From positions 174,277 through 238,276 of the forward strand of contig JAJTYI010000004.1 of assembly GCA_021463645.1 (NCBI GenBank): a stretch of 64,000 bases of DNA. Direction: 5' to 3'. How positions within the stretch are numbered: the stretch's first letter is position 1; each line of letters starts with the position of its first letter. The notes beneath the pieces are model-generated. The model was given only the letters and a program-made list of their open reading frames with translations, was not told where the DNA came from and made no database searches. Shown here in pieces: positions 23,094 to 58,777 of this stretch. The position numbers and the translations under genes were made by a program. The stretch comes from a bacterium. GTDB lineage: Bacteria; Patescibacteriota; Dojkabacteria; B142; OLB20.

Positions 23094-23102
23094 CCAAATA
23101 AT

Positions 23103-23642: not shown

Positions 23643-23643
23643 T

Positions 23644-24426: not shown

Positions 24427-24744
24427 ATGACATCGGGAAGTTTATACATAATTGGTGATAAATATATAGTTGATACCTACCGAATCCTTGGCTGTAAAGG
24501 CTTGGTATACGAAGAAGCAAAGTTAAATTCTATTATCGAATATATTGAAGCTAATTTTGAAAGGATAGGAGGAATTTTATTGACAGATGAAGTCTATGAT
24601 GAAGATTCTAAGTTAATCAGAAAAATAGATAATTTAGAAATACCATGGATAGTTTTACCATCACTTGAGGAGAATGGAAACAAAGGATATCAAGAGTTGG
24701 AAAGATTAGCAGAGAAAGCTATCGGAATGAAAATAAAAATTTGA
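24427..24744 (+). CDS. atpF: V/A-type ATPase subunit F
   Basis: 105 aa. LYIIGDKYIVDTYRILGCKG (the typical subunit F beginning), in the correct position. Start abuts the subunit C stop. Confidence 0.78.
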   Translation: MTSGSLYIIGDKYIVDTYRILGCKGLVYEEAKLNSIIEYIEANFERIGGILLTDEVYDEDSKLIRKIDNLEIPWIVLPSLEENGNKGYQELERLAEKAIGMKIKI

Positions 24745-24772
24745 TAAATAATTTAAATTAACGAAAAAGATA

Positions 24773-26596: not shown

Positions 26597-26626
26597 ACTG
26601 ATTATATTAAATTAATATTTTGAAAA

Positions 26627-42864: not shown

Positions 42865-43002
42865 TCGGAGCGATCCCGCCTATAAATAGGCGGGACGACC
42901 TCTCGCTCCCAAAGCGAGTGTTCTAGCCCCAGCCTCAACCAAAGGCTGATGTGCCTATGGCTCAATAGGCTGGTCCGCCTCTGGCGGAAACTGAACTACG
43001 CT
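42865..43002 (-). pseudogene. Degenerate tRNA-Pro copy with a 61-nt structured D-loop insertion and replaced T arm
   Basis: The minus strand matches the real tRNA-Pro at GCGTAGTTCAGT, GGCTAGAAC(A)CTCGCTTTGGGAGCGAGAGGTCG and TCGCTCCGA. The first 4 acceptor nt are missing, 42929-42989 is an inserted multi-hairpin, and the T arm is replaced by TCCCGCCT-ATTTAT-AGGCGGGA. Confidence 0.8.
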
Positions 43003-43241
43003 TGAATTTTATCGAGCAATTTACGACCTTGACCAGACTTTAGGAACTTCTCTTTATTTGTTCCACATTCTTTGCAATATTTCTGTTCGAAATAAAGCAA
43101 CTCATATGGAATATTATTTTTGGTGTATCGATTTGAGCCTTCATTGTGTTCTTTTAGTCTGTTCGTGATTGGTTTACTAGTATAACCTATGTAACGGTTT
43201 CCGTTTTTCTTACTCTTCAAAACATAAACAGAGTAACTCAT
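42996..43241 (-). CDS. GIY-YIG nuclease superfamily protein (small stand-alone, UPF0213-like)
   Basis: 81 aa. YVLKSKKNGNRYIGYT (GIY..YIG), R..EH..G core. The stop codon TAG lies inside tRNA-derived sequence (GCG-TAG-TTCAGT). Confidence 0.82.
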   Translation of the reverse strand: MSYSVYVLKSKKNGNRYIGYTSKPITNRLKEHNEGSNRYTKNNIPYELLYFEQKYCKECGTNKEKFLKSGQGRKLLDKIQA

Positions 43242-43264
43242 AGACTATCATTGTAAAAATTATA

Positions 43265-43338
43265 TCGGAGCGACTAGACTCGAACTAGCGACCTCTCGCT
43301 CCCAAAGCGAGCGTTCTAGCCAACTGAACTACGCTCCG
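43265..43338 (-). tRNA. tRNA-Pro (anticodon UGG)
   Basis: Hand-folded 74-nt cloverleaf: acceptor CGGAGCG/CGCTCCG, D arm GTTC-AGTTGGCTA-GAAC, anticodon loop TTTGGGA, T arm GCTAG-TTCGAGT-CTAGT, discriminator A. Confidence 0.9.
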
Positions 43339-43399
43339 ATATAATTTTCAAACAACAATCTAATTATCCTATTAATTATCAAGAATAATGAACTGCTTG

Positions 43400-43462
43400 C
43401 CCACGTAGCCTTAAGCGAAGGTGGGAACCTTGTCCCTGACTTGATCAGGGATACGCTCCGAT
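43400..43462. repeat. Orphan tRNA-Pro 5' fragment (leader plus first 9 nt) fused to two GC-rich hairpins
   Basis: Minus strand GAAAATTAAATCGGAGCGTA, compared with GAAAATTATATCGGAGCGTA at the real gene. Followed by hairpins TCCCTGA..TCAGGGA (43433-43451) and CCCAC..GTGGG (43400-43425). Confidence 0.75.
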
Positions 43463-43471
43463 TTAATTTTC

Positions 43472-43509
43472 AAAAAAGTGTGAGATTCGTAATCTACACA
43501 TTATTTTTT
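43472..43509. terminator. Bidirectional terminator-like hairpin between divergent tRNA-Pro and giant-protein operon
   Basis: AAAAAA-GTGT(G)AGATT-CGT-AATCTACAC-ATTATTTTTT: 9-bp stem with one bulge and U-runs on both strands. Confidence 0.45.
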
Positions 43510-43630
43510 CAGAGTAATTCTACCACATCCACATACATAATTCTTAAATATTACAAAAATTCCTAAATATTGTAGTGGTAATACTTTTGTGCTAATTTAT
43601 AGATGAAAATTAAATACATATTTCGCGTTT

Positions 43631-46600
43631 ATGAAGCTCACTCTTAACAGGCTTAGATTTTTGGTATCACTAGGTTGGATATTCCTTATTGGAATTTTTT
43701 CTGTTGTAGGAACTGATCGTGTTGGGAGTGTACTTTCTGCTACCTCTCCATGGACACAAACAGAATGGTCTGGAGGACAAACAGATGACCTGGCGATTGG
43801 AACGGTTACCACATATAAGCAGATGGAGAATTTAGTAACTACATCGGGGAATTTGACACTGGCGTTAAAGTCTCCTTGGATGAATGAGGATTGGGGTTAC
43901 CGAAAAAAGCTTGTAATTGACAACACAACCGCAAATTTAGGCATTGCTTCTGAACAGCATCTGGATTTTCCAGTATTAGTAACTTTAAACACCGATAATT
44001 TCGATTATTCTAAAGCGAATGAAGATGGGAGCGACATAAGGTTTACTGATAGCGATGCATTAACCCTTCTTGATTATCAAATTGAGACTTGGGATATCTC
44101 TGGAGATTCTTTTATTTGGGTTAAGATTCCTCAAATTGATTTAGACTCAGATACTGACAATTTCTATTTATATTATGGAAATGCCTCAGCTATAGATGCG
44201 CAGAATCCTAGCGGAGTTTGGAGCAATTCATTTGAAGGTGTTTGGTTGTTAAATGACCCAAATGATACAACTTTGGTTTTAGATAGTGCTGGTAATCCGA
44301 CTTCAGAGAATGGTACAGCGCTTGCTGGAATAACTAATGCCTCGAAGATTAAATCCGGAATAGGTGGTGCGTTACAATTTGGATCTATAACCACAGATTA
44401 TATAACTCTGGGTATGCCAGCAAATCTTGATTTCACCCCAAATGCACAAGAATTTACAATTGATGCATGGGTCAAGTTTCCAGTCAATGCATCAGGGACT
44501 TTTTTTAGCAAAGGATCGAACACAGCGGCTAATATACAGTACGAGATGTATATTGGAACCAATAGACTTTATAGTCGAGTTGGAGGTGTAGCAAGAGATT
44601 CCACAAAGATAATTGGAGATGGAGAATGGCATCATATAGTTCTTCGTAATTACAATTCATCTGGATTGAAAATTTTTCAATATGTAGATGGATTGCAGGG
44701 AGGTACGCCTATTGCATCTGGGGCAGGAGTAATAACTGATAGAGATGTGATAATAGGAGGAAGAAGAAGTTCTACTAATGCAAACATTACATCAAGTTTA
44801 TCAGCAGGAGTAGAAATGGCAATGGTTAGGGCATCTAGTGTTGCACGTACTCCAGCATGGATTGCTGCCACCTTCAAATCTGAAAGTAACAGTTTTTTTG
44901 AATTTGAGTCAGAAGAAATGAAATACGAGACAAACGGATCTGTTTTATCAAATATCTTAGATGCAGAAGTGTTGCAAGATTGGGGAGTACTAAATTATAC
45001 AAACACTGGATCATCAAGCTTAGAAGTGAAGGTGAGAAGTGGAAATGAACCAGATTTATCTGACTCGGAACAGAGTTGGAGTGAGTGTTCTACAATTTCG
45101 TCTGGATCTACATTGGGAAGTGGAGGATGTGTTACAAATAAAACAAGATATATTCAATACAAAGTTGAATTCGTTGCAACTGATGCACAGACGCCTATTT
45201 TGGAAGATATTTCTTTAGCTTTTACACTAGCTGATATTGTTCGGCCTCCTACAAATGCAACTAACATTGAGATAGCTAATTTTTCTAGTGGAGATTGGAT
45301 TAATTCGTCTCCCACAATAACTTGGGATCCAGGAGTCGACAATGATGGAGGGAGCGGAATTTTAGGTTATTGTGTTTCGGTTGATGAGTCAGAACCAGAT
45401 TCAACTCATTCACTTGATCCAGAAGCAAATGCAGGAATTCTTCAGGGTTTGGATGATGGAGTTGTATCTTCAGCTTGCCCATATATTGTTGAAGGTGAGG
45501 AATTCAACTTGTCATCAATAAATGGATTAAATTTAACTTCTGGAAAGCAATATTATTTCTCGATAAAAGCTATCGATCAAAGTGATAACATTAACAATAC
45601 TGGTGCTTTCCAAGACTTACTATCATTCAAGTTCGACAATACACCACCAACACCACCCAGCTATGTTTCAATGCCTACAAACTTTCTATCATCAAAGAGT
45701 GTTACTGTGAGTTGGCCTTCAACTGGACCTGGTAGCGCAGAAGATGTTCATTCAGGGATTGCAGGTTTACAGTATAAAATCGGAACAGATGGAACATGGT
45801 ATGGGGATTTGCATACTGGCGTAGAAGACATAAACGACATACTAGTTAATGACGGATCATATACAACAAGCCCCGATTATGATTATTCTCAATTAATTGA
45901 AGGTACTAATTTCTTCTACATCAGAGCTGTTGACAATTTAGGAAATGTAACTTCAGATCAAGATGTAACGACTGGTTTAATCAAGATTAACACTTCTGCA
46001 CCATCAAAAGTTCTAAATCTATCAGTAAATAATTCAAATAATACTGAAAATAGTTATTCTTTTGATTGGGATCAGCCCGCCACCTTCACGGGTCAAGCTA
46101 GTGGTATTAGCTATTGTTACACAATTAATACTATCCCAGATGAGAACTCCTGTACTTTTACAGAACCAGGTGTTACAGAACTTCCTTCAGATGCGTATGC
46201 AACACAACCTGGGGTGAATACACTTTATGTTGTAGCAAAAGATGAAGCGGGAAATATTAACTATGCAACTTATAGTGAAACAGGCGCAAGTATAACTTTT
46301 ACATATTCAGGTAGTGCACCTGGTATACCTACAAATACTGACATATCTGATATTTCAATAAAGTCTACGGAGAATTGGAGACTTGTAATTTCTTGGAATA
46401 GCCCAACTAATATAGGTGCTGGTGTCTCCTATTACAATATTTATCGTAAGGTGGGTGAAGCGTCTTGTCTATCCAATTTTAGTTCTTTCAGTAAAGTAGG
46501 CTCAAGTAACAGTACTTCGTATATTGATCCCGATCTTCAACCAGTTCTTTACAGTTACTGTATAAAAGCATGTGATAGTGCCAATAATTGTTCTGCAAGT

Positions 46601-47872
46601 TCAGGAACTGCAAGTCGTGTTCCTACTGGTAAATTCACGGAAGCTGCATTATTATCTAGTGAAGTCGAGGTGTTGTCCGTAACAACTAGAAAAGCACTAA
46701 TTAGCTGGGTGACAGATAGGGTTAGTGATTCGAAAATTGAATATGGACTAGAGTCCGGAAAATATTTTGAAGAGGAAGTGAGTAATAGTGCCCAAGTGAT
46801 AAGCCACAATATTACTCTTAACAATTTGACACCAGGAACAACATATTTTTATAAAGTTAAATGGACTGATGTAGATGGGAATACTGGTGTAAGTGATGAA
46901 AAGTCTTTTGCCACTTTACCTCCTCCAGTAGTGTCAAATGTTTCGGCAAGTGCTATTACTACGAATTCAGCATTAATAAACTTCAGAGTGAGAAATGCAA
47001 CAAGAGTGTCCCTCGTATACGGGACAACAGAAACTTACGGAGGGAGTGAAGAAATTGCTACTTCGACTGAAGAATCTGAATATTCGATTCGATTGGGTAA
47101 TTTACAAGATGGAGTTACCTATAATTATAAATTCTTCCTGCAGGATATTGACGGAAATAATAATGACTCTGTTGTAAATTTCCAATTTGCGACTTTGCCA
47201 CTACCACAAATTAATAATCTAAGATTCGAAGAAGTGAAGAATACATCTCAACCAACAGTTAATGTATTTTGGGAAACCAATGTATTAACACTTGGATTTG
47301 TAGAATATGTAAATCAGGACAACCCAAGTGAGGATAGAACCCAAGCCGAAAGTGAATATTCCAATGAGCACGAATTAACCCTAACCGGATTAACTGCGAA
47401 TACAAATTACACTTTAATAGTTAGTGCCAGAGATTCTCTTGGGAATGTAGTTCAATCGGGGGAGTTTACATTCACTACTGCAAGTGACTCTAGGCCACCT
47501 GCAATATCAAATGTAAAAATTGAAACACGTCTTTCCGATGCCTCAGTAGAATTCGGTGCAGATGTATCGGCACAATTGATACTTACCTGGGACACAGATG
47601 AACTTGCTACAAGTCAAGTTCAGTTCGCACAAGGAACATCTGGAGACTATACTCAAAAAACTGCACTTGATGAAAATTTGACCTTTAATCACTTAGTGGT
47701 TATAAATAACTTAAGCCCGAGTAGCGTTTATAAATTACAAGTTTTGTCAAAAGATGATGTAGGTAATGAGGCAAGGGGTAAGAATATTGTCACGATTACT
47801 GCACAATCAAAAGAAAATCCTTTGGAAGTCATTTTTGGAAGGTTGTCGGAGGTATTTGGTTTCTTAAGATAG
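43631..47872 (+). CDS. Giant secreted/anchored surface protein: DUF2341-like, LamG/ConA-like lectin, multiple FN3/Ig-like repeats
   Basis: 1413 aa. N-terminal signal anchor, SPWTQTEWSGG, DUF2341 pattern (WGYRKK..DFPVLV..DGSDIRF..IWVKIP..YLYYGN), a LamG-like block, and FN3-like repeats (ISWVTDRVSDSKIEYG...). Paralogue of the next gene. Confidence 0.85.
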   Translation: MKLTLNRLRFLVSLGWIFLIGIFSVVGTDRVGSVLSATSPWTQTEWSGGQTDDLAIGTVTTYKQMENLVTTSGNLTLALKSPWMNEDWGYRKKLVIDNTTANLGIASEQHLDFPVLVTLNTDNFDYSKANEDGSDIRFTDSDALTLLDYQIETWDISGDSFIWVKIPQIDLDSDTDNFYLYYGNASAIDAQNPSGVWSNSFEGVWLLNDPNDTTLVLDSAGNPTSENGTALAGITNASKIKSGIGGALQFGSITTDYITLGMPANLDFTPNAQEFTIDAWVKFPVNASGTFFSKGSNTAANIQYEMYIGTNRLYSRVGGVARDSTKIIGDGEWHHIVLRNYNSSGLKIFQYVDGLQGGTPIASGAGVITDRDVIIGGRRSSTNANITSSLSAGVEMAMVRASSVARTPAWIAATFKSESNSFFEFESEEMKYETNGSVLSNILDAEVLQDWGVLNYTNTGSSSLEVKVRSGNEPDLSDSEQSWSECSTISSGSTLGSGGCVTNKTRYIQYKVEFVATDAQTPILEDISLAFTLADIVRPPTNATNIEIANFSSGDWINSSPTITWDPGVDNDGGSGILGYCVSVDESEPDSTHSLDPEANAGILQGLDDGVVSSACPYIVEGEEFNLSSINGLNLTSGKQYYFSIKAIDQSDNINNTGAFQDLLSFKFDNTPPTPPSYVSMPTNFLSSKSVTVSWPSTGPGSAEDVHSGIAGLQYKIGTDGTWYGDLHTGVEDINDILVNDGSYTTSPDYDYSQLIEGTNFFYIRAVDNLGNVTSDQDVTTGLIKINTSAPSKVLNLSVNNSNNTENSYSFDWDQPATFTGQASGISYCYTINTIPDENSCTFTEPGVTELPSDAYATQPGVNTLYVVAKDEAGNINYATYSETGASITFTYSGSAPGIPTNTDISDISIKSTENWRLVISWNSPTNIGAGVSYYNIYRKVGEASCLSNFSSFSKVGSSNSTSYIDPDLQPVLYSYCIKACDSANNCSASSGTASRVPTGKFTEAALLSSEVEVLSVTTRKALISWVTDRVSDSKIEYGLESGKYFEEEVSNSAQVISHNITLNNLTPGTTYFYKVKWTDVDGNTGVSDEKSFATLPPPVVSNVSASAITTNSALINFRVRNATRVSLVYGTTETYGGSEEIATSTEESEYSIRLGNLQDGVTYNYKFFLQDIDGNNNDSVVNFQFATLPLPQINNLRFEEVKNTSQPTVNVFWETNVLTLGFVEYVNQDNPSEDRTQAESEYSNEHELTLTGLTANTNYTLIVSARDSLGNVVQSGEFTFTTASDSRPPAISNVKIETRLSDASVEFGADVSAQLILTWDTDELATSQVQFAQGTSGDYTQKTALDENLTFNHLVVINNLSPSSVYKLQVLSKDDVGNEARGKNIVTITAQSKENPLEVIFGRLSEVFGFLR

Positions 47873-47876
47873 TTCG

Positions 47877-50800
47877 ATGCATGCAAAGAAAATTCTTGCG
47901 ATAAAAACTCTTAGTTTCTCAGTGTTATTCGTAGCTGTAATTTTTCTTGGAACACGAATCAAAGGTAATTTAAATGAGTTCGGTAATGTACTTTCAGCCA
48001 ACTCCCCTTGGATTCAGACAGATTGGAGTGGGGGTGTATATAACCAAATTGTAACGGGTAATGTAAATACTTATATATCCGAAACCGCTATTGATGCTGC
48101 TCTGAATGGTGAAATTAAATTACTTGAAAAAGAGGAGTGGGCTGTTGATTATAATGGATGGCAATATCGTAAGAAAATAAATTTTAATAACACTGATGCA
48201 TTTCTAAATGTCGAAAGTCAAGACTTGATTGATTTTCCGGTTCTTATTGTTCTTCAGCAAGGTGTAAATTTTGATTATACTAAATCTAAAGATAATGGTC
48301 AGGACATACGATTTGCTGATTCAAATGGAAATGTATTAAATTATGAAATAGAAAGATGGGAAGAAAATGGATCCTCCTATATTTGGGTAAAAGTCCCTCA
48401 GATTGATCAAAATTCAAATTCAAGTTATATATATGTCTACTACGGAAATTCTAGTGCATCAGATAGTCAAAACATTACTGGAGTTTGGAAGGATGATTAT
48501 AAAGGAGTATGGCATTTTAAGGAAGTTGTACATAATTCATGCACTGGTAATGTAAATGATACTTGTGATTCTACAATCAACTCAATTAACGGTTCATGGA
48601 CTGGCACTTTCCTTTCTGCAAATGGAAAAATTGGAAAAGCAGGTCAGTTTACTAATAATGCTACTAATTTCCTGGATTTCGGAGATAATGCAGTCTTTGA
48701 TTTTGGGAATAGCGACTTTACTATAGAGACTTGGTCGAATAGAAATATTGTCAATAGTGATTGGAATTCATCTGTGATTACAAAATGGAATACTGGAGCA
48801 TCACCATCAACAAATGAATGGTCAATTTCTTGGGGTTCTGGAGGTTCAAGATCTACTGTCCCTGGTTTTACGATGGTATCTGGATCTACTAATTATAATG
48901 CTAATTCAACCGAAAGTTTACTTACACAAACATGGAATCATATCGTAGCAGTCAGAGAAAACACGAATATACTTTTATATGTTAACGGAGTATTGCATGC
49001 AACAACTCCTGTTGGGTCTGTTTCTGTAAATAATGTACCCGGAAGAACACTTAAAGTTGCTAAAATTGATGCAGGGAGTTATGGATTTGATGGTTTGATA
49101 GATGAAATAAAGATTTCTAGAACTGCAAAGTCCCGATCGTGGATAGCGGCAACTTATAAGTCGGAAAATAATCAATTTGCCTCCTTTTCTCAAGAAGATC
49201 TCAAATATAATGATAGTGGTTATCTAGTTTCAAACATTCTTGATTCAGGTGTGTCAATGGACTGGGGATTACTAAACTACACAAGTTCAGGAACAGGTAC
49301 GGTAACAGTTAAGGTACGAACAGACAACTCGTCTGATATGAGTGGAGCAACAGGCTGGGGAACGTGTGGTGCAGTTACAAGCGGAACTGACACTTCTGCA
49401 AACAACTGTGTAGACGATGGAGATAGATATATCCAATATCAAGTAACTCTTCAACCAAGTGGAGCATCAACTCCAGTATTTGAAGATATTAGCATAGCTT
49501 TTGTTCCATCAGATCAACTAGCACCAGAAGTAAACGCAACAGATGTTGAAATCTCAGGACTTGCAAACAGCGGAGATTGGTATGCAACAGAACCAACAAT
49601 CACATGGACAGCAGGAGCAGATGACTTAGGGGGTAATGGGATTTTAGGATATTGTATAGCAATAGATGAAGCAGAACCAAATGCCAGTAACGGACTAAAT
49701 CCAGCGATGACCTCAGGAATACTAACAGGTAAGAATGACGGAGTAGCACAAGAGTATTGCCCCTACATAGTAGTGGGAGAAGAATTAGAGGTAAGTGCAG
49801 TAATAGGACTGGATTTGATTGCAGGTAAACAATACTACATATCAATAAAAGCAGTAGATATCGCAGGAAATATCTACACAGGAACAGATGAAACATGGAA
49901 AGATCTACTATCATTCAAGTATGACAACGAAGAACCAACAGCACCATTCTACATATCATTACCCGCAAACTTTCTATCATCAAAAGACGTAGTAGTAACA
50001 TGGCCGGTAGGAGTAGGAGGAGCAGATGACTTACACTCAGGACTAGCAGGACTACAGTACAGGATAGGAGACACAGGAACATGGTATGGAGACCTACATA
50101 CAGGAACAGAAGATATCAATGACCTACTAATAAACGACGGTTCGTATGTAACAGACGAGACATACGATTACCCAGAACTAGTAGAAGGAAACAACCTAAT
50201 CTACTTCAGGGCAGTAGATAATCTAGGGAATGTAACAGCACCAGAGAACTATGTAAAAGGAATATTGAAGCTAAATACAGTGGCACCATCTCCAGTAAGA
50301 AATCTCTCCGTAAACCCAATAAACGGAACAGAAAACAATTACACATTTACATGGGATGTCCCAGGAACATATACAGGATCAAGTTCAGGGATAAGATACT
50401 GTTACACAGTAAACGCAATACCGTCAGTATCAAATTGCATATACACAGATCCGGGAGTAACAACCATAGGACCAGATGCATATGCAACACAACCAGGAGA
50501 GAATACAATGTACGTAGTAGCAAAAGATGAAGCAGGAAACATCAACTATGCAACATACTCGGAACCAGGATCAAGTGTAACGTATACATACTCAGGAACA
50601 GCACCAGGAATGGCACAGAACTTGGATGTAGCAGATATCTCGGTAAAAGCAACACTGAATTGGAGACTGGTACTATCGTGGGATCAACCAACAAACATAG
50701 GAGCAGGGATATCCTACTACAATATTTATCGTAGTGAGACAGCAACTTCATGTGTATCTTCACAGAGTGCATTCACAAAAGTAGGGTCAAGTACAAGTAC

Positions 50801-52151
50801 ATCATACATAGATCCAAACCTACAACAAAAAACATACAATTATTGTATAAAGGCATGTGATAGTGCAAACAACTGTTCAGCGAGTTCAGGGACGGTAGGG
50901 AGATTACCAACAGGGAAGTTCACGGAACCAGCAGAGTTGCTATCTCCACCGGAGGTAGTGAGTTTTACAACAAGGAAGGCAGTGATTAATTGGATAACAG
51001 ACAGAGTATCAGACTCTAGTATTCAGTATGGTCTTGAAAGTGGTGTCTACTTCGAAGCAGAAGTAGCAAACAGTAATCAACTAGCTGTACATACAATTCC
51101 TCTCAATAATCTCGAACCAGGAACTACATACTATTACAGAGCAAAATGGACTGATGTAGATGGAAACACAGGTGTAAGTGAGGAAAAAACTTTCTCTACT
51201 CTTCCGGCCCCAACAATCTCAAACACAATAACAACTAACGTCACTACAAATTCGGCGGTTGTCACATTTTTAGTAAGAAATTCAGTAGAAGCAACTATTT
51301 TATACGGATTATCCGATAATTATGGTGGCTCACAAACGATACCAACCTCTACAATAGAGTCGACTTATTCATTGCAACTTACAAATCTTCAAGAAGGTAC
51401 ATTGTACAACTACAAACTGAATCTATTGGATGTCGATGGGAATAACTATACTTATTTTGAGAATCATCAATTTACAACATTACCATATCCGCGAGTACAA
51501 GATATCCAAGTACAAGAAGTAAAAAACAGCGCTCAACCAACAGTCGATGTAAATTGGATATCAAATGTACCAATAAGTACCCAAGTTAATTACTATCCTC
51601 TAGATGACACTAATCAGAAAAGGGATAAGCTCGATGTAGAATTAAAAACAGAACACAAAATATCGATTTCAGAATTACAACCAAACAGAAGATACGGTAT
51701 GATAATAACTGGAAGAGATGCAATAGGAAATCAAGCTGTATCTGATGAATATCAATTCACAACAGCAGCAGACTCAAGACCACCAGAAATAAGAAACATA
51801 AAGGTAGAGACAAGAGTAAGTAATACAAATACAGGAGAACAAGCACAAACACAGTTGATAGTGACATGGGATACGGATGAAGAAGCAACAAGTCAGATAG
51901 AATATGGAGAAGGTTCAGGAGGGACATATACACAGAGGAGTTTGGTAGATGACAATCTAACGTTCAATCATTTAGTAATAGTAAACAATCTACGACCAAG
52001 TAGTGTGTATCACTTCAGAGTGGTATCGGCAGATAGTGCAGGGAATGAATCAAGTGGAAAGAATGTAGTAACGATAACAGCACAAGTAAGTGAAAACCCA
52101 TTGGACATAATTATCTCTAGATTAACTGAAGTGTTTGGTTTTATCCGCTAG
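47877..52151 (+). CDS. Giant surface protein, paralogue of 43631-47872 (DUF2341-like, LamG-like, FN3 repeats)
   Basis: 1424 aa with the same architecture and the same C-terminal tail (ENPLDIIISRLTEVFGFIR). Starts 4 nt after the previous stop. Confidence 0.85.
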   Translation: MHAKKILAIKTLSFSVLFVAVIFLGTRIKGNLNEFGNVLSANSPWIQTDWSGGVYNQIVTGNVNTYISETAIDAALNGEIKLLEKEEWAVDYNGWQYRKKINFNNTDAFLNVESQDLIDFPVLIVLQQGVNFDYTKSKDNGQDIRFADSNGNVLNYEIERWEENGSSYIWVKVPQIDQNSNSSYIYVYYGNSSASDSQNITGVWKDDYKGVWHFKEVVHNSCTGNVNDTCDSTINSINGSWTGTFLSANGKIGKAGQFTNNATNFLDFGDNAVFDFGNSDFTIETWSNRNIVNSDWNSSVITKWNTGASPSTNEWSISWGSGGSRSTVPGFTMVSGSTNYNANSTESLLTQTWNHIVAVRENTNILLYVNGVLHATTPVGSVSVNNVPGRTLKVAKIDAGSYGFDGLIDEIKISRTAKSRSWIAATYKSENNQFASFSQEDLKYNDSGYLVSNILDSGVSMDWGLLNYTSSGTGTVTVKVRTDNSSDMSGATGWGTCGAVTSGTDTSANNCVDDGDRYIQYQVTLQPSGASTPVFEDISIAFVPSDQLAPEVNATDVEISGLANSGDWYATEPTITWTAGADDLGGNGILGYCIAIDEAEPNASNGLNPAMTSGILTGKNDGVAQEYCPYIVVGEELEVSAVIGLDLIAGKQYYISIKAVDIAGNIYTGTDETWKDLLSFKYDNEEPTAPFYISLPANFLSSKDVVVTWPVGVGGADDLHSGLAGLQYRIGDTGTWYGDLHTGTEDINDLLINDGSYVTDETYDYPELVEGNNLIYFRAVDNLGNVTAPENYVKGILKLNTVAPSPVRNLSVNPINGTENNYTFTWDVPGTYTGSSSGIRYCYTVNAIPSVSNCIYTDPGVTTIGPDAYATQPGENTMYVVAKDEAGNINYATYSEPGSSVTYTYSGTAPGMAQNLDVADISVKATLNWRLVLSWDQPTNIGAGISYYNIYRSETATSCVSSQSAFTKVGSSTSTSYIDPNLQQKTYNYCIKACDSANNCSASSGTVGRLPTGKFTEPAELLSPPEVVSFTTRKAVINWITDRVSDSSIQYGLESGVYFEAEVANSNQLAVHTIPLNNLEPGTTYYYRAKWTDVDGNTGVSEEKTFSTLPAPTISNTITTNVTTNSAVVTFLVRNSVEATILYGLSDNYGGSQTIPTSTIESTYSLQLTNLQEGTLYNYKLNLLDVDGNNYTYFENHQFTTLPYPRVQDIQVQEVKNSAQPTVDVNWISNVPISTQVNYYPLDDTNQKRDKLDVELKTEHKISISELQPNRRYGMIITGRDAIGNQAVSDEYQFTTAADSRPPEIRNIKVETRVSNTNTGEQAQTQLIVTWDTDEEATSQIEYGEGSGGTYTQRSLVDDNLTFNHLVIVNNLRPSSVYHFRVVSADSAGNESSGKNVVTITAQVSENPLDIIISRLTEVFGFIR

Positions 52152-52197
52152 GGTGTTAAAACTTGCCAATGTAAAACAAAACAATTAATATAAAGTA

Positions 52198-54585
52198 TTG
52201 AAAAATCTTATGGAATCGAAACCAATTATACAACTCAAGAATGTAACTAAAGATTTTCAGGTCAAAATTCAGGAAATTAAAGTTTTAAGAGGTATTACTT
52301 TAGATATAATGCCAGGGGAGTTTGTTGTCATATTGGGTCCATCTGGGTCAGGTAAATCAACCATCTTAAATCTAATTCTTGGGTTAGAACCTCCTACAAG
52401 TGGGGAAGTAATATTCAAAGGTATTCCAATACATAATCAAACACCTGATTTTATTGCGGAAATTAGAAAAAATGAAGTCGGAATGGTACATCAGCAAGCA
52501 AATTGGATTAGATCACTTTCTGTAATTGAAAATGTTGGTTTCCCATTGGCACTTAGGAACATTCCTAAACACAAATTAATGAACAAAGCTAGAGAGAAGC
52601 TCGATATTTTCGGTATGGGTGGTTGGGCAAATTTCATGCCTAGCGAACTTTCTTCTGGACAGCAACAAAAAGTGGGTTTGGCAAGAGCACTAGTGACAGA
52701 TCCAGATATCATAGTTGCAGATGAGCCTACAGGAAACTTGGACTTTAAAAGTGGAAGAAGATTAGTAGAGTTGTTATCCGGTCTGACGAAAGATGGGAAA
52801 ACCGTAATTATGGTTACCCATGACTTGGAGTATATTGAGTTTGCAGACAGAATCATCAGAATTCTAGATGGAAAAGTCTTTGAAGAGATTAATAACAAAC
52901 ATGGGAAACACAATATAGATGAACTTAAGCAAAAAATAGTTACTCAAAATGTTGAAGCAGAAAAGTTTTACGAATCCGCAGAGGACAGTGCTCCTAGCGT
53001 ATATAGGGCAAAATCAAAGATGCAGAAATTCAAACAAAGTATCAAAGCGTTCAATATGAAATCTGCAATAAAAAAAGAATTGCAGTCTTATAAAATAATC
53101 ATAGAATTATTTTTCGTTGTTATTACACTTTTATTAGTAATCATATCAATAGGGTATAGATTTATTGATAAGTTCCTTGGTTTTAAATATTGGCCTAATT
53201 TTATGAGGACAATTCAGTATAGATTTTCGGATATTTACTATAAATTCTTAGACAAAATAGTTCAGTATCGAGGTGAAAGCGTGAATTTCGCAGATATGAT
53301 TGATCTTTCAGTAAAGAATCTTATGTCTAAAAAAACTAGAACTTACGTAACTGTTGGTGGTGTTGCAATGGGAATTGCTTTTACAGTATTCCTAGTTTCT
53401 ATAGGCTTTGGATTAGAACGGCTGGTTCTACAGAATTTTTCAAAGTTAGATCAACTTCGTTCAATTGATGCATATTCTTCAGTTAGTCAAAATGTCCAAA
53501 TTAACGATAAAACTGTCTCGGATTTGAAGAATGTAACCGGAGTTGAACAAGTACTTCCAATTATCGCGATTGCTGGTAAAGTTAATCTTCAAGGATCTGA
53601 GACAGATATTGTAGCTTATGGGGTTGAAAGAGAGTACTTGAGGAGATCAGACCTAAACTTACTACATGGGGAATTTTTTCCAGATTTACAAATTGCACAA
53701 AACACAGACAATGTAAAAGGTGAAGAAGATGCTGTATCTGATGAAACACTAGAAGAAGATGGTAATCAAGTTAAAAAAGTTCGTATTCCTCAAAATTCAC
53801 AACAACAAACAGTTGTAAATACAGCTTTTTTGGATTTATTCGGTTTAGAGTATGAATCTGCTATTGGTAGCGAGTTTGATGTTTCGTTGATCGCTACTCA
53901 AGAATTAGCGGAAGGAGAAGAAGTGGATTTGGAAAGTTACCCTACAACTTATAAAATCACATCTGTTGTTTCTAATTTTTCTATTCCAGTGATTTACGTT
54001 CCGCTAAAAGATGTACAAGCCCTAGGGGTACAAACATATTCACAAGCCAGAATTATTACTGCATCCCAAGACAACGTACCAGAAGTAAGACAAAAAATAG
54101 ATGTCATGGGATATAGAACGGAATCAATTTTAGACACTATCACACAAATAGAGTCCACTTTCAGAAATATTAGGTTGGTATTAACTAGTGTTGGTATGGT
54201 TGCCCTAGCTGTTGCATCATTTGGTATGTTTAATACATTGACTGTGTCTCTACTTGAAAGGATTCGAGAGGTGGGTCTTCTAAAAGTGATGGGGATGAAG
54301 AGTGTTGAGATCAAGGATTTGTTCCTCACGGAGTCAATCTTGTTAGGACTCGGAGGTGGAGTTCTTGGAATTGTAATCGGATTGGTTAGCGGAACAGTTG
54401 TTTCTACAATTATTTCATCTATTGCTATTTCTCGTGGTTACGAATCTATTCAGGTTGCGAGTATACCATTCGCATCTCTGATGGCAATTCTTCTTGTAGC
54501 TACAGTAACTGGAATGCTCACAGGTCTATATCCATCTAGACGTGCCACAAACATTTCTGCACTTAACGCATTAAGATACGAATAA
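52198..54585 (+). CDS. Fused ABC transporter: ATP-binding domain plus FtsX/MacB-type permease
   Basis: 795 aa. Walker A GPSGSGKST, signature LSSGQQQKV, Walker B IIVADEPTGNLD and H-loop VTHD. Then the FtsX/MacB-type permease domain, with a large loop between TM helices and the C-terminal LYPSRRA motif. TTG at 52198 or ATG at 52210. Confidence 0.88.
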   Translation: MKNLMESKPIIQLKNVTKDFQVKIQEIKVLRGITLDIMPGEFVVILGPSGSGKSTILNLILGLEPPTSGEVIFKGIPIHNQTPDFIAEIRKNEVGMVHQQANWIRSLSVIENVGFPLALRNIPKHKLMNKAREKLDIFGMGGWANFMPSELSSGQQQKVGLARALVTDPDIIVADEPTGNLDFKSGRRLVELLSGLTKDGKTVIMVTHDLEYIEFADRIIRILDGKVFEEINNKHGKHNIDELKQKIVTQNVEAEKFYESAEDSAPSVYRAKSKMQKFKQSIKAFNMKSAIKKELQSYKIIIELFFVVITLLLVIISIGYRFIDKFLGFKYWPNFMRTIQYRFSDIYYKFLDKIVQYRGESVNFADMIDLSVKNLMSKKTRTYVTVGGVAMGIAFTVFLVSIGFGLERLVLQNFSKLDQLRSIDAYSSVSQNVQINDKTVSDLKNVTGVEQVLPIIAIAGKVNLQGSETDIVAYGVEREYLRRSDLNLLHGEFFPDLQIAQNTDNVKGEEDAVSDETLEEDGNQVKKVRIPQNSQQQTVVNTAFLDLFGLEYESAIGSEFDVSLIATQELAEGEEVDLESYPTTYKITSVVSNFSIPVIYVPLKDVQALGVQTYSQARIITASQDNVPEVRQKIDVMGYRTESILDTITQIESTFRNIRLVLTSVGMVALAVASFGMFNTLTVSLLERIREVGLLKVMGMKSVEIKDLFLTESILLGLGGGVLGIVIGLVSGTVVSTIISSIAISRGYESIQVASIPFASLMAILLVATVTGMLTGLYPSRRATNISALNALRYE

Positions 54586-54590
54586 AATTT

Positions 54591-55655
54591 ATGGGTGATT
54601 TCGATATTAGCCAAATAAATAATGCTAGTGAACAAGAATCGCCAAAAAACAAGCGTAACTTTTCCTCAATTGTTAAAAAAGGTCTAATTATTTTCTCACT
54701 AATTTTTGTTGTTATCTCTGCAATTTTTATCTATTCATATAAGTATAGAAATAGGTCAGATGATATAACCATAGGATATTCATCTGAGGAAGATATAGCC
54801 CTAGTGAGTATAGCTGAGAATTTAAAATATTTTGCAGATAAAGAAGTGGAGATTGATTATCGAAACTATGATGACGAATTAGAATTAATTCAAGCGCTTT
54901 CAGAGTCAAAGGTTGACGTGGTCTTTGTGGAGGACCTATCTATAGTAATGGCAAATCCCGCAGAAAATAAAAATAAAATCATAACTTCGGTTTTAAATGC
55001 AGAAAAATATTTTTTTGTTGTCGACGTAAAGAAAGGTGTTTTTGATGTTTCGAGTTTGAGTGGCCAAGAATTAGGTGTACCAGATTCATATAAAACAGAT
55101 TATTGGCTCGCAAAAGGATTGATTAATGCAGGAATAGATAAAAGGGACGTGATTATTGAAACCTACAAGCCTGAGAAACTGGCAGAAGAGTTGGCTAATG
55201 CAGAGGTAACCGGAATTTTTGCATGGCAGCCATATGTATATGAATCTGAGACATTTGAAGGTTCTGAAGTTCAACAAATTGTTTTACCAATTCAAAGAGA
55301 AGAGCAATCTTATAATTATCTATTAACTTCGGAAAGTTATCTTGAAAATAATGCAGAGGATTTGAAAAAATTGGTTTTATCTTTAATATCCGCTGAACAA
55401 TACATCGTAGAAAATAACGACATCTCTGTAGAATATCTAGCGGGTGAGTGGTCTAGTGAAAAAAGATATGTAACAGAAATTTTGAATTCATACAATTACG
55501 AAGTAAATATTTCTCGAGAATCCAAACTATCGTTATCTGAAAAATACGAATGGTCAAAGACAAAATCCCGCAGTCAAGACGAGGAATTTCAAATCGAAAG
55601 TATCTACTACTACAATCTTTTGAGAGAAATCGACCCGAAAAGAGCTGAGTTTTGA
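54591..55655 (+). CDS. Membrane-anchored periplasmic-binding-protein-like protein (NMT1/SsuA-like)
   Basis: 354 aa. N-terminal TM, then ITIGYSSEEDIALVSIAENLKYFADKEVEIDYRNY..ALSESKVDVVF and ELGVPDSY..TGIFAWQPY, the pattern of type 2 SBPs of the NMT1/TauA/SsuA class. Confidence 0.6.
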   Translation: MGDFDISQINNASEQESPKNKRNFSSIVKKGLIIFSLIFVVISAIFIYSYKYRNRSDDITIGYSSEEDIALVSIAENLKYFADKEVEIDYRNYDDELELIQALSESKVDVVFVEDLSIVMANPAENKNKIITSVLNAEKYFFVVDVKKGVFDVSSLSGQELGVPDSYKTDYWLAKGLINAGIDKRDVIIETYKPEKLAEELANAEVTGIFAWQPYVYESETFEGSEVQQIVLPIQREEQSYNYLLTSESYLENNAEDLKKLVLSLISAEQYIVENNDISVEYLAGEWSSEKRYVTEILNSYNYEVNISRESKLSLSEKYEWSKTKSRSQDEEFQIESIYYYNLLREIDPKRAEF

Positions 55656-55688: not shown

Positions 55689-56414
55689 ATGTTTCAGATT
55701 AAAACATCAACCAAACCTGCTTTTAATTCTGCAAAGAGAAATATAGAACTACTTAGTTCCCAATTGTCACATAAAAATAATGTAACATGGCTTTTGGCAG
55801 GAGGTTCTGCAATAAATATCTACAGAGAAATGCTTGATTTAATAAAATTAGACTTGGATTTCTCCAGATTAAGTATTTCTTTGGGAGATGAAAGATATTC
55901 TAAAAATCCCGCTCACAAGGATGCAACTTGGCCAATATTTGAAAAGTTGGAACTATTTGTCGAATTAAAGAAACTTGGAGCGAATATATTTCAAATATTG
56001 TCTGGAAAATCTATAGAAAAAGATGCAGACAGATTTAATAACTTCCTTAAAGATCGACTCAGAGATAGTGATTTTATATTATGTAATCTTGGAGTTGGTA
56101 CCGATTCACACACAGCAGGAATTCTTCCGATGAATGACATGAAACTTTTTGAAGAAACTTACCCTGAGAATCGACTGGCAGTAGGACACAAACATGGTGG
56201 AGTACATCCCAAAAGAATTACTGTTACTCCCGGTTTTCTCAAGAAAGCAAACAAAATTACCGTTTTTATGATAGGTTCTGATAAAAAGCCCGTTCTAAAA
56301 GAGCTTCATAAATATAAAGAACTCGAAAAAACACAGAATATGATTTACAAACATCCAGCCCTTGTTACATCTCTAATGTCCGCCGAGGTATTCACGGATC
56401 AAAAGTTATCTTAG
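55689..56414 (+). CDS. pgl: 6-phosphogluconolactonase
   Basis: 241 aa. LLAGGSAINIY, SLGDERY and GVGTDSHTAGILP (NagB/6PGL family), in context with gnd and zwf. Confidence 0.85.
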   Translation: MFQIKTSTKPAFNSAKRNIELLSSQLSHKNNVTWLLAGGSAINIYREMLDLIKLDLDFSRLSISLGDERYSKNPAHKDATWPIFEKLELFVELKKLGANIFQILSGKSIEKDADRFNNFLKDRLRDSDFILCNLGVGTDSHTAGILPMNDMKLFEETYPENRLAVGHKHGGVHPKRITVTPGFLKKANKITVFMIGSDKKPVLKELHKYKELEKTQNMIYKHPALVTSLMSAEVFTDQKLS

Positions 56415-56434
56415 TTTTTAGCCTTTTATACGTC

Positions 56435-57355
56435 ATGAAAAAAGAAATTGGATTTATTGGTTTAGGTAGTATGGGTTTAAATATGGTTTACAAACTATTA
56501 GATGAAGACTATATAGTTCATGCTTGGAACAGAAGCGAGGGGGCAAGACTAGAAGCCGAGAAAGCTGGTGCAAAAGTTTACGAATCCATTGGAGAAATGG
56601 CAAAAGCATTAAAAGAAGATGAAAGACTCTTCTGGAGTATGGTAAGTGCAGGTCCAGCAGTTGATGAGGTGCTAACTGAATTGAAAAAATATGTTAGGAA
56701 AGGAGATTTAGTTGTTGAAGGTGCTAATTCATTTTACGAGGATAGCGTAAAACGTCATGATGAATTTGCTAGTCTTGGTGTTTATTATTTTGATGCCGGG
56801 GTTAGTGGCGGTTTGGGAGGTGCGAGGAATGGTGCCTGTATTATGATTGGTGGTGACAAGAAAATTTTCGATGAGCATCTTGAGCAAATAGTTAAGGATT
56901 TAGCGATTGAAGATGGTTATGGCTACTTCGGAGAAACGGGAGCTGGGCATTATGTCAAAATGGTACATAATGCTATTGAATATGCAATGATGCAGGCTAT
57001 GGGCGAAGGAATGAATCTAATTTCAAAATCGCAATACAAAGATGTTGATTTCGAGAAATTAACAGATGTCTGGAATCACGGGAGTATTATAGAAGGACGT
57101 TTGATGGGCTTTTTGAAAGATGCATTATCAAAGGATAATAATCTTGAGAAAACAGAAAGTGAAGTAGGTTCACTAGGAACTGGTGAATGGTCTGTCAGAG
57201 AAGCTTTGAAGAACGAAGTCCCATTTTCTGCAATCGCAGGAAGTGTTTTCGCGAGGTATAATTCTAGAGGAAATGACGACTTCTCTGCAAAAGTTGTCCA
57301 GGCATTACGAGTTGAGTTTGGAGGTCACAATTCACAAGAACGACCACAGAAATAA
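56435..57355 (+). CDS. gnd: 6-phosphogluconate dehydrogenase, short (~300 aa) decarboxylating form
   Basis: 306 aa. IGFIGLGSMGLNM, DAGVSGG and GAGHYVKMVHNAIEYAMMQAMGEG. Confidence 0.9.
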   Translation: MKKEIGFIGLGSMGLNMVYKLLDEDYIVHAWNRSEGARLEAEKAGAKVYESIGEMAKALKEDERLFWSMVSAGPAVDEVLTELKKYVRKGDLVVEGANSFYEDSVKRHDEFASLGVYYFDAGVSGGLGGARNGACIMIGGDKKIFDEHLEQIVKDLAIEDGYGYFGETGAGHYVKMVHNAIEYAMMQAMGEGMNLISKSQYKDVDFEKLTDVWNHGSIIEGRLMGFLKDALSKDNNLEKTESEVGSLGTGEWSVREALKNEVPFSAIAGSVFARYNSRGNDDFSAKVVQALRVEFGGHNSQERPQK

Positions 57356-57376
57356 ATATTTTTAACTAAAAACATA

Positions 57377-58777
57377 ATGATTTTAACAATTTTTGGTGCT
57401 ACAGGAGATCTTGCAAGAAGGATGTTATTTCCGTCACTCTATCATCTTCATAAACAAGGCCGACTTCCTAATGACCTGGAAATAGTCGGATTTGCTAGGC
57501 GTGAACTATCCAATGAACAATTTTGTGAGTATCTATCAGATGAATTCAAAAACTTATATGGAAATGTTTTCAATTTAGAAAGTTGGCAAAAATTTTGTGA
57601 AAAAATCACCTATTTTCAAGGCGACTTAGCGAGTGAAGCTGACTTCCAAAGACTTGGGAAAAAATTAGCAGAAGCGGATACAGATCTTCAGTCATGTACC
57701 GATAAGATCTTCTATTTAGCAATCAGTCCGGATTTATATCCGCAAACATTTTCAGGAATCAGAAAATCACAACTTGAAAGCATCTGTGAACACACAAAAC
57801 ACGTTCGAGTTGTAGTTGAAAAACCATTTGGAAAAAACTTAAAATCTTATTATGAATTGAATAATAACTTAATAGATATTTTCGATGAGGAACAGATCTA
57901 TCGTATTGATCATTATTTAGGAAAAGAAACCGTAAAGAACATTTTGAATTTTAGAGCTGCAAATCCATTATTTTTTAACGACTGGAACAAAAACACGATA
58001 GATCGAATAGATGTGAAAGTGATGGAATCCCTAGGAGTTGGAACTCGAGCAGAATATTATGACGAGTATGGACAAATGAGGGATTTGGTTCAAAGTCATG
58101 GCTTGCAGTTATTATCTCTTGTGATGTCAGAATTACCTGACGAACTCACAGCAGACAAAATACGTAACTCGAAAACTGAGATCCTGCAGAGTTTGTATGT
58201 GGAGAGTATGGAAAACGATGTTGTTCGGGGACAGTATGGCAGTGGAATTATAGATGGCTACCCAGTTAAATCTTACAAGGAAGAGCATGAGAAGTTGGTA
58301 GAGTCAAATACCGAGACTTATGTACATATAAAAGCACATTCAAGGCTTGAAACCTGGGAGGGTGTTGAGATTAATTTGATTAGTGGCAAAAGAATGCAAA
58401 GTAAAGAGACTTCTATTACATTACATTTTAAGAGCCAAGAGCGAGTAAAAGGCATCCCTTCGAAAAATAAACTAATATTCCAACTTCAACCAAGTGAGGG
58501 TATTACACTTGACTTACAGGTGAAAAAACCGGGTTTAAATGAGCTCGAGGTTGTCCCAATGGTTTTCAAATATCAAGACAATTTTAGAGTACTACTTCCA
58601 GATGCTTATGAATCTCTGCTTTTAGATATATTTAAAGGCAATAAATCGAGTTTTATTAGTAATGAAGAATTAGAAGCATCATGGAAATTTATTGATCCAA
58701 TATTAGAGCTATGGAATACTGAAAATTCTCGACCGGTGATTTATCCTGCGGGAAGTAAGTATTTGCAGATTAATTAA
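57377..58777 (+). CDS. zwf: Glucose-6-phosphate 1-dehydrogenase
   Basis: 466 aa. IFGATGDLARR, EKPFG and RIDHYLGKE motifs. Confidence 0.95.
   Translation: MILTIFGATGDLARRMLFPSLYHLHKQGRLPNDLEIVGFARRELSNEQFCEYLSDEFKNLYGNVFNLESWQKFCEKITYFQGDLASEADFQRLGKKLAEADTDLQSCTDKIFYLAISPDLYPQTFSGIRKSQLESICEHTKHVRVVVEKPFGKNLKSYYELNNNLIDIFDEEQIYRIDHYLGKETVKNILNFRAANPLFFNDWNKNTIDRIDVKVMESLGVGTRAEYYDEYGQMRDLVQSHGLQLLSLVMSELPDELTADKIRNSKTEILQSLYVESMENDVVRGQYGSGIIDGYPVKSYKEEHEKLVESNTETYVHIKAHSRLETWEGVEINLISGKRMQSKETSITLHFKSQERVKGIPSKNKLIFQLQPSEGITLDLQVKKPGLNELEVVPMVFKYQDNFRVLLPDAYESLLLDIFKGNKSSFISNEELEASWKFIDPILELWNTENSRPVIYPAGSKYLQIN

Follow-up and report, generated by a model that had tools for sequence, protein, structure and literature searches.

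ATP-binding cassette (ABC) proteins of type VII move no substrate across the membrane; they pass ATP-driven motion on to partners outside the cytoplasm or pull molecules out of the outer leaflet, and the partnerships described include FtsEX-EnvC, LolCDE-LolA, MacAB, and YbbAP-TesA (PMC5985334, PMC12646458). Here, we analyze a 64,000-nucleotide stretch of a Dojkabacteria genome (contig JAJTYI010000004.1 of assembly GCA_021463645.1; the whole stretch is hereafter called the window), in which two giant surface proteins rich in fibronectin type III (FN3) domains are encoded directly upstream of a fused MacB-type ABC protein. A type VII ABC protein with an extracytoplasmic partner is a known arrangement; the new elements are the proposed giant-fiber partner class and a C-terminal tail motif that no Pfam or NCBIfam model describes. 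Our literature search returned no description of the giant-ABC pairing or of the tail, only generic remarks on large surface proteins of the Candidate Phyla Radiation (CPR), in which DUF2341, FN3, or ConA-like domains are frequent and which may serve in adhesion (PMC11809585, PMC13059738). Current annotations name the proteins of this module "hypothetical," "fibronectin type III domain-containing," or "antimicrobial peptide ABC permease," and the tail motif would offer a useful annotation marker for them.

FtsEX, acting with EnvC, PcsB, CwlO, or RipC, resembles the locus in combining an ATPase with an FtsX-family permease of four transmembrane (TM) helices and a large extracytoplasmic domain, in having a dedicated extracytoplasmic partner encoded nearby, in the proposed helix contact, and in a mechanical relay of the ATP cycle in place of transport. 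However, the permease here carries MacB_PCD rather than the FtsX ECD, the partner is an FN3 fiber of 1400-6300 aa without a hydrolase or LytM domain, the candidate contact is a single C-terminal helix of 15-17 residues in place of a long coiled coil, and several modules per genome are possible. MacB (of MacAB-TolC) and the Gram-positive MacB-like Spr0694-0695 share with the window protein the order of fused or split ATPase, TM1, periplasmic core, and TM2-4. Unlike them, the locus encodes no MacA-like adaptor or TolC, its ABC protein has an extra hydrophobic helix before TM1 and only ~22% identity to solved MacB chains, and its presumed partner is a giant protein rather than a small molecule or peptide.

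LolCDE-LolA and YbbAP-TesA provide a possible mode of action, in which the transporter grasps an element, hydrophobic or amphipathic, on the outer side of the membrane and expels it on ATP binding, although the element would here be a C-terminal peptide helix instead of N-terminal acyl chains or lipids, and the locus encodes no acceptor resembling LolA or TesA. A different parallel lies in the C-terminal sorting signals, namely LPXTG/sortase, the C-terminal domain (CTD) of the type IX secretion system (T9SS), PEP-CTERM/exosortase, and PGF-CTERM, where a short conserved C-terminus on large variable surface proteins is likewise linked to a dedicated machine; the tail described here nevertheless lacks their layout of motif, TM helix, and basic tail, and the linked machine is an ABC transporter, neither transpeptidase nor protease.

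The original prediction described four plus-strand genes separated by 4, 46, and 5 nt, and the coordinates of the open reading frames (ORFs) agree exactly:

43631..47872, plus strand: giant 1, ORF of 1413 aa
47877..52151, plus strand: giant 2, ORF of 1424 aa
52198..54585, plus strand: fused ABC gene, ORF of 795 aa
54591..55655, plus strand: binding-protein gene, ORF of 354 aa

The ABC protein probably starts at ATG 52210 instead, because the resulting 791 aa equals the length of close homologues; the gap to giant 2 would then be 58 nt. Promoter and terminator scans performed no better than on shuffled sequence and were not used. Giants 1 and 2 are paralogues over their full length (49% identity across 1447 columns), so their shared tail reflects a tandem duplication within the window, and the significance of the tail therefore comes only from distant relatives. 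Across those relatives, the conserved unit is a two-part module, consisting of one or more giant extracytoplasmic fibers and a dedicated MacB-type (type VII) ABC protein, rather than the four-gene operon.

Synteny of giant and ABC genes across genomes

A species-level scan (one genome per species, full-length alignment A2) returned 368 relatives, and the best 77 loci were analyzed. In 73 of these the giant has a complete C-terminus, and the ABC genes were placed as follows:

65 of 73 loci: ATPase and MacB-type permease downstream
5 of 73 loci: contig end within 1.5 kb of the giant
2 of 73 loci (L072, L074): ABC genes adjacent upstream
1 of 73 loci (L020): no ABC gene within 7.8 kb

The ATPase ORF starts within 150 nt of the giant stop codon in 67 giants, often overlapping it. 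The analyzed records are labeled Dojkabacteria, Saccharibacteria, WWE3, "Patescibacteria group," and, probably wrongly, Gammaproteobacteria. The giant-ABC synteny on which the original prediction staked its functional link is kept almost without exception in Dojkabacteria, Saccharibacteria, WWE3, Uhrbacteria-type, and other Patescibacteria genomes. The closest species-representative genome, a Candidatus Dojkabacteria metagenome-assembled genome (MAG; locus L009), carries the same four genes with a giant 1 that is 89% identical.

Distant relatives follow the same pattern. Five of six distant homologues (26-49% identical) have ABC_tran and MacB_PCD/FtsX genes, fused or split, directly downstream of them; the sixth, P0022, shares the N-terminal head alone, with a convincing tail and the ABC genes both missing. 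P0187, recovered in an independent profile search, is again followed by ABC_tran and MacB_PCD/FtsX genes. In the reverse test, which started from permeases, an FN3 giant was found directly upstream of the permease homologues P0093 and P0177, and the giant of L086 ends in ...DNALNLVITNLSQVFGFLGGLK with an unrelated N-terminus. No ABC neighbor was seen beside the tail-less DUF2341/LamG giants P0022, P0030, and P0033. Head domains vary among the giants (DUF2341/LamG, FGE-sulfatase-like, or none recognized), and the terminal FN3 domain and tail stay constant. The largest tail-bearing protein, P0183 (6321 aa), lies on a contig that stops 108 nt past the gene, and no ATPase start falls in that stretch.

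Duplicated modules provide a further line of evidence. Where a Saccharibacteria genome has two modules, each giant stays with its own ATPase and permease, and the first modules of two genomes (L057.M1 versus L080.M1) share 68/83/71% identity in giant C-terminus, ATPase, and permease, whereas the first and second modules inside one genome share only 42-51%. Because first modules are far closer across genomes than first and second modules are within a genome, whole modules have been duplicated and kept as units.

These observations bear on the explanation that the adjacency has no meaning for the fiber, the ABC protein being a common MacB-type pump for efflux or antimicrobial-peptide resistance that happens to lie in one operon with it. 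Such a pump would agree with the source labels of the ABC homologues ("ABC-type antimicrobial peptide transport system permease" or "macrolide export") and with the unrelated genes pgl, gnd, and zwf packed downstream on the same strand. It is difficult to reconcile with the synteny in 65/73 informative loci across several CPR classes in which gene order around the pair is otherwise unconserved, with the recovery of giants from permeases, with the lack of ABC genes beside tail-less relatives, and with the duplication of modules as units. We accordingly regard this explanation as improbable.

Several loci show further features. Seven tail-plus-ABC loci (L016, L024, L027, L034, L037, L053, and L077) come from MAGs titled "uncultured Gammaproteobacteria" or "Pseudomonadales"; because their modules resemble Patescibacteria ones, these labels are probably wrong or the bins mixed. 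A helix-turn-helix (transposase-like) gene is inserted between module ATPase and permease in L007 (15167-15892), and insertion-sequence-type transposase genes (rve) lie directly upstream of the giant in L001 and L002. The contig of P0093 (JGI 3300072015, 688 kb) encodes a presumed tail-type FN3 giant with a faint FGE-sulfatase/C-type-lectin-like match, ~1 kb downstream of the bAvd and reverse-transcriptase genes of a diversity-generating retroelement, with two small genes between, and upstream of its own ABC pair and a type IV secretion-like cluster (TrbC, TrbL, TraC, VirB4-like). The head of this fiber may be a target of the neighboring retroelement.

A conserved C-terminal tail, predicted to be helical, and its possible handling by the ABC protein

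Both giants were predicted to end in the same tail, and in each translation this tail makes up the final 19 residues:

47813..47869, plus strand: tail of giant 1, ENPLEVIFGRLSEVFGFLR, predicted amphipathic helix (AlphaFold2 [AF2] model and conservation)
52092..52148, plus strand: tail of giant 2, ENPLDIIISRLTEVFGFIR (translation and paralogue alignment)

Nothing tail-like is encoded elsewhere within the window. The tail is a predicted C-terminal helix of 15-17 residues with the consensus φφxφφφxxLxxxFG(F/W/L), which is kept down to ~26% identity. A homologue search returned 58 proteins, and all those aligning to the C-terminal FN3 region, save P0058, end in the tail right after the last FN3 domain. 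Among them are proteins of 1386-2061 aa at only 26-45% identity, with endings such as TDNAFDLVITNLQEAFGFLGGVQ, SESILTIIINTMQKIFGL, and DVSVFDIIINNFEANFGWLRELRGN. In 91 unique homologues from species-representative genomes the tail aligns without gaps across every tail type, with L conserved in 98%, F in 99%, and G in 76%. Homologue, species-genome, and profile searches alike placed the tail in orthologues and distant homologues; its absence from orthologues, which the original prediction named as refuting, is not what was seen.

A profile of the terminal FN3 domain and tail, run against 1.84 billion cluster representatives, gave 15,576 matches at E <= 1e-3 and 2060 at E <= 1e-30. The tail motif, written as [VI][LIF][QDE][ILV]I[IVM]xN[FL]Ex[TI]FG[WF] within the last 15-36 residues, is C-terminal in 73 of the 150 best cluster representatives, against a background of 10 in 6000 internal 50-aa windows. 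In this second set, which was sampled independently, the F is kept in 73/73, and the polar residues N and E hold fixed places; the 73 proteins are 953-6321 aa long, and one tail-bearing cluster is labeled Candidatus Uhrbacteria. The remaining FN3 arrays among the best 150 end in T9SS sorting domains or PG_binding_1, in agreement with Pfam. Because related arrays in other bacterial phyla end in these modules instead, the tail fills the slot of known sorting or anchoring modules.

The tail itself belongs to none of the established signals. As the original prediction stated, an LPXTG-like motif is found in neither giant; PEP-CTERM, GlyGly-CTERM, PGF-CTERM, and T9SS CTD signals are likewise absent, and no Pfam or NCBIfam model matches the tail (E <= 0.1 or 0.01). 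In the AF2 model of a 130-residue FN3-tail fragment, residues 114-129 form a helix with a predicted local distance difference test score (pLDDT) of ~60. Hydrophobic moments of the tail are 0.34-0.39 (0.34 being the 96th percentile within giant 1), and its mean hydrophobicity is 0.22. A TM anchor was considered for the tail and ruled out by this low mean hydrophobicity and by the E, R, and E in mid-helix.

Together, synteny and tail conservation lead us to favor, by a modest degree, the reading that the giant is a Sec-exported fiber whose terminal FN3 domain and helix are handled, by docking or extraction, by the dedicated type VII ABC protein. This reading draws on three features: the linkage is near-obligate, one-to-one, and co-duplicating; the terminal FN3 domain and tail are constant against variable heads; and the tail has a fixed length with invariant apolar and conserved polar positions. 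The giant would be exported by Sec through its N-terminal signal peptide and would probably be oxidized afterward. Its membrane-proximal C-terminal helix would be the element by which the cognate ABC dimer handles it, either docking on the stalk or the extracytoplasmic domain of the MacB-type protein, in the manner of the EnvC and PcsB coiled coils on FtsX, or being picked from the outer leaflet into a TM groove, as LolCDE picks lipoproteins. The ATP cycle of the cytoplasmic ATPase domains, binding and hydrolysis alike, would be relayed through the membrane as mechanical movement and would hold, actuate, or release the fiber, so that the direction of action may be anchoring or release. The tail would thereby take the place held by LPXTG, T9SS sorting domains, or PG-binding domains in related proteins. 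A fiber with a distal N-terminal head and a C-terminal anchor has the orientation of Gram-positive adhesins.

The same tail properties can be read without any contact between tail and ABC protein. The two could be functionally linked while the tail serves as an autonomous outer-leaflet anchor, like the PBP5 C-terminus, or as a fiber-oligomerizing helix, which we consider rather unlikely; in a version of this explanation that we find equally doubtful, the ABC protein would move a lipid or glycan for fiber attachment or modification, or would clear the signal peptide. [quoted passage not shown] On the other side, the fixed tail length, the invariant L and F, and the conserved polar N and E suggest a specific protein-protein interface, and the one-to-one co-duplication of giant and ABC genes is hard to square with a generic ABC substrate.

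Several observations nevertheless weigh against the favored reading. The tail helix is only moderately amphipathic, and a pLDDT of ~60 fits a free helix, yet as a model score it is no proof of a helix. Co-transcription is not obligatory, because the ABC genes are transcribed divergently in L051 and L072 and L020 has none within 7.8 kb. The correlation of tail type with permease type is confounded by phylogeny, and as a correlate of the ABC protein the tail is inseparable from the terminal FN3 domain. The annotation table of S. epibionticum, a cultivated, genetically tractable Saccharibacterium characterized by Tn-seq, lists no DUF2341 or Pur_ac_phosph_N (PF16656) protein; its "FN3" protein SEML1_0890 is unrelated and only 195 aa long, and its MacB-type ABC proteins do not adjoin giants. 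Finally, if the extra hydrophobic helix before TM1 were a fifth TM helix, the odd number would not allow the ATPase to be cytoplasmic and MacB_PCD external at once, which shows that the topology is incompletely understood.

We put forward a broader idea tentatively, as possible rather than probable: a CPR-wide sorting or anchoring system in which an "FGF/FGW-CTERM" helix is the specific ligand of a dedicated type VII ABC protein. ATP would hold, tension, or release the fiber, making an energized adhesin base that controls host-cell attachment and detachment in ultrasmall episymbionts, and in some lineages the system may be combined with diversity-generating retroelements that vary the fiber head. 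Much of bacterial diversity belongs to the Patescibacteria, whose members live attached to other cells. The module is common, and no surface proteins in these tiny genomes are larger than the ones it encodes, which reach 6321 aa. If the tail is indeed an ABC ligand, it would represent a fifth partner class for type VII mechanotransmission, beside hydrolase activators, LolA, MacA, and TesA, and would give monoderm-like cells, here without sortase-type logic, a new signal for sorting or anchoring at the C-terminus. The 130-residue FN3-tail fragment and the ~790-residue ABC protein form a compact, testable pair.

Architecture of the giants and the ABC protein

Domain analysis of the giants revealed the following parts:

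43631..47872, plus strand: giant 1, in order a signal peptide, SPWTQTEWSGG, DUF2341, a LamG-like region, Cys-containing beta-sandwich domains, four C-terminal FN3 domains, and the helix tail
43631..43738, plus strand: probable Sec signal peptide of giant 1 (aa 1-36), predicted cleavage VLS|ATSPW, hydrophobic core FLVSLGWIFLIGIFSVV
43745..43777, plus strand: N-terminal motif SPWTQTEWSGG of giant 1 (aa 39-49), from motif match and alignment conservation
44024..44221, plus strand: DUF2341 of giant 1 (aa 132-197), PF10102, 54 bits versus a cut-off of 23.4
46625..47812, plus strand: four tandem FN3 domains (Pur_ac_phosph_N-like) of giant 1 (~aa 999-1394), from Pfam, with boundaries from TLP.P/DSRPP linkers
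47877..52151, plus strand: giant 2, with DUF2341 (1.2e-15, aa 140-203) and Laminin_G_3 (3.7e-16, aa 268-424)

Pfam agrees with the DUF2341-like block and FN3-like repeats expected in both giants. E-values for giant 1 are 2.4e-14 (DUF2341), 5.4e-15 (fn3), and 5e-20 (Pur_ac_phosph_N), and the fn3 and Pur_ac_phosph_N models match both proteins. For the expected LamG/ConA-like block, Laminin_G_3 exceeds its threshold in giant 2 only, and giant 1 has a LamG-like region. Most of the motifs listed as shared (SPW(T/I)QT(E/D)WSGG, W.YRKK, DFPVL, IWVK.P, and YYGN) do occur in both; DG.DIRF occurs in giant 1 (DGSDIRF) but reads NGQDIRF in giant 2. With DUF2341, LamG, FN3 repeats, and a secretion signal, the proteins belong to the DUF2341/LamG-FN3 giants of Patescibacteria, and homologues carry the label [quoted passage not shown] The giant heads are N-terminal and variable, here DUF2341 and LamG, which are lectin-like folds, and a fiber might bind a host through its head. 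At the opposite end, conservation reaches widest in the last FN3 domain of giant 1 (aa 1286-1394), which AF2 models with pLDDT >90. A search of solved structures with giant 1 gave a single weak generic FN3 match, to Dscam (E 2e-4).

The N-terminus had been taken for a signal anchor. A cleavable Sec signal peptide is likelier, because relatives have a small-x-small site right before (A)TSPWTQTDWSGG (VFA|ATSPW, IFA|ATAPW, ALA|ASTPW), and on this sequence evidence the giants probably start with a cleaved signal peptide. W46, G48, and G49 of the N-terminal motif are invariant in a 13-sequence full-length alignment. The motif (S/T)PW.QTDWSGG, just past the predicted cleavage site, is nearly invariant in DUF2341-headed giants (window 43745-43777 and 48003-48035) and also opens P0031, an otherwise different protein of 1382 aa (MADSWMQTDWSGG). 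Cysteines number 10 in giant 1 and 12 in giant 2; conserved ones include C486/C500, C581/C616, C829/C841, and the stretch CIKACDSANNC. DsbB-like (4036-4515, minus strand) and DsbD_TM-like (36065-36805, plus strand) genes in the window imply extracytoplasmic disulfide formation, and given these genes and the even cysteine counts, the giants are probably oxidized.

These N-terminal features bear on the explanation that the tail is an uncleaved secretion signal and that the ABC protein exports the giant as LapB or HlyB export RTX adhesins. The gene logic is indeed that of LapA-LapBCE, with a giant, repetitive, adhesin-like substrate, a conserved extreme C-terminus, and an adjacent ABC gene. In contrast to type 1 secretion, however, the giants carry N-terminal Sec-type signal peptides and no RTX repeats were found in them, the ABC protein has the MacB fold rather than that of the HlyB exporter, the locus encodes no membrane-fusion or outer-membrane component, and the organism is presumably monoderm. 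MacB, moreover, has no transmembrane substrate channel (PMC5985334), which also counts against export through the ABC protein. Type 1-like secretion is therefore very improbable, and handling of a Sec-exported fiber by its ABC partner remains our preferred reading.

That the third gene fuses an ABC ATPase to a MacB/FtsX permease, as first proposed, is supported by Pfam, NCBIfam, and the predicted fold alike:

52198..54585, plus strand: fused type VII (MacB-type) ABC protein, in order ATPase, linker with extra hydrophobic helix, TM1, MacB periplasmic core, TM2-4 (FtsX)
53059..53178, plus strand: extra strongly hydrophobic helix (~aa 288-327) preceding TM1, Kyte-Doolittle peak 3.15, AF2 pLDDT 84-91
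53347..54099, plus strand: MacB-like extracytoplasmic core domain (aa 384-634), PF12704, modeled by AF2 as mixed alpha/beta between TM1 and TM2

Pfam matches comprise ABC_tran (2e-31), MacB_PCD (3.8e-11, aa 384-634), and FtsX (2e-15, aa 665-787). The Walker A, signature, Walker B with catalytic Glu, and H-loop motifs are legible as GPSGSGKST, LSSGQQQ, IIVADEPTGNLD, and VTHD. The protein thus has the complete ATPase motif set of a type VII ABC, together with a four-TM permease, a large extracytoplasmic domain between TM1 and TM2, and FtsX, plus one hydrophobic helix extra. The AF2 model (51-sequence alignment, pLDDT 83.8) shows the ATPase, long stalk helices, an alpha/beta extracytoplasmic domain, and three more TM helices, with permease helices at 379-414, 644-687, 702-745, and 758-783. 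In Foldseek, this predicted structure matches full-length MacB (5GKO/5LIL/5NIK; E 1e-40 to 1e-47; TM-score normalized to the target 0.69-0.84), and its ATPase fold matches MacB, LolD, FtsE, and MJ0796 (TM-score to the target 0.9). The MacB-like core domain is a candidate docking surface for the giants.

The protein nevertheless falls outside MacB proper. Its best NCBIfam model is MacB NF007826, at 253.9 bits versus an equivalog cut-off of 966, and Pfam scans of the window ORFs found no HlyD/MacA-like gene in the operon or its neighbors. Because it scores below the equivalog cut-off and has no MacA-like adaptor, it has a MacB-type fold without being a MacB orthologue of MacAB-TolC.

Similar scores enter into the explanation that this is an FtsEX-like cell-wall module, the ABC protein being a division-type transporter and the giant its regulated wall-remodeling partner. 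The ATPase does score well against the FtsE model TIGR02673 (1e-53), and FtsX partners bind through helices. That score, however, amounts to 182 bits versus a cut-off of 264.85; the permease carries MacB_PCD and no FtsX ECD, and its whole predicted fold matches MacB. Pfam and NCBIfam detected no hydrolase or LytM domain in the giants, and the several modules possible per genome are unlike a single division machine. An FtsEX-like role is in our view highly unlikely, again leaving the dedicated handling of the giant's terminal helix as the reading we favor.

The extra hydrophobic helix, ~55 residues before TM1, recurs in L009, L011, L013, and L018 and, as an N-terminal segment, in the large split permeases of L016, L021, L024, and L077; it is thus shared by fused proteins and large split permeases and absent from the ~415-aa Saccharibacteria permeases and from canonical MacB. 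Large split permeases (650-850 aa; e.g., L021 7607-9571 and L077 12841-15399) also contain a ~200-aa extracytoplasmic insertion with conserved cysteines and the motif WxxVRxxPxxxxxxxGYT (alignment A3), which appears to resemble bacterial SH3 domains. At the insertion site, the window ABC protein has only a low-confidence acidic loop (aa 501-523).

The binding-protein gene and the surrounding window

The last gene of the operon was predicted to encode a TM-anchored NMT1/SsuA-like binding protein and to belong with the giants and the ABC protein in one system:

54591..55655, plus strand: NMT1/SsuA-like protein with an N-terminal TM helix, NMT1 3.5e-12, TIGR01728 (SsuA_fam) 68 bits versus a cut-off of 163.5

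The Pfam match to NMT1 upholds the family assignment in part, and TIGR01728 is reached only below its cut-off. The proposed place in a conserved unit was not borne out, since a homologue follows the ABC gene only in L009, the 89%-identical relative. Other genes replace it after the ABC gene in L011, L018, and other loci (a holin/phosphodiesterase fusion, LexA, and others), and the binding protein was rejected as a system component on synteny. From gene order, it appears to be a Dojkabacteria-specific passenger, a lineage-specific neighbor of the module. An SsuABC/TauABC-type importer was also considered for it; the family cut-off is missed, the ABC protein next door is MacB-type, and a Pfam scan of 47 window ORFs, among them all neighbors of the binding-protein gene that reach 100 aa, found no importer-type permease. 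MacB-type ABC proteins are not known to use binding proteins. Next after the gene, in the same orientation, come pgl, gnd, and zwf (55689-58777), in an order identical to that in L009.

Housekeeping genes make up the rest of the window, including gatB, an A/V-type ATPase operon, the serine hydroxymethyltransferase gene, and folD, with pgl, gnd, and zwf just downstream of the operon. The A/V-type ATPase operon (20587-28626, plus strand) encodes V_ATPase_I, two ATP-synt_ab proteins with a V/A-type C-terminal domain, and subunit D. A tRNA-Pro(UGG) gene (43264-43339, minus strand) lies directly upstream of the giant operon and is adjoined by a small GIY-YIG ORF (42996-43241, minus strand). The 5' end of this tRNA together with its flank, tacgctccgat(a/t)taattttcaaa, recurs in part after ~120 nt, within the AT-rich leader of 290 nt (43340-43630) that precedes giant 1.

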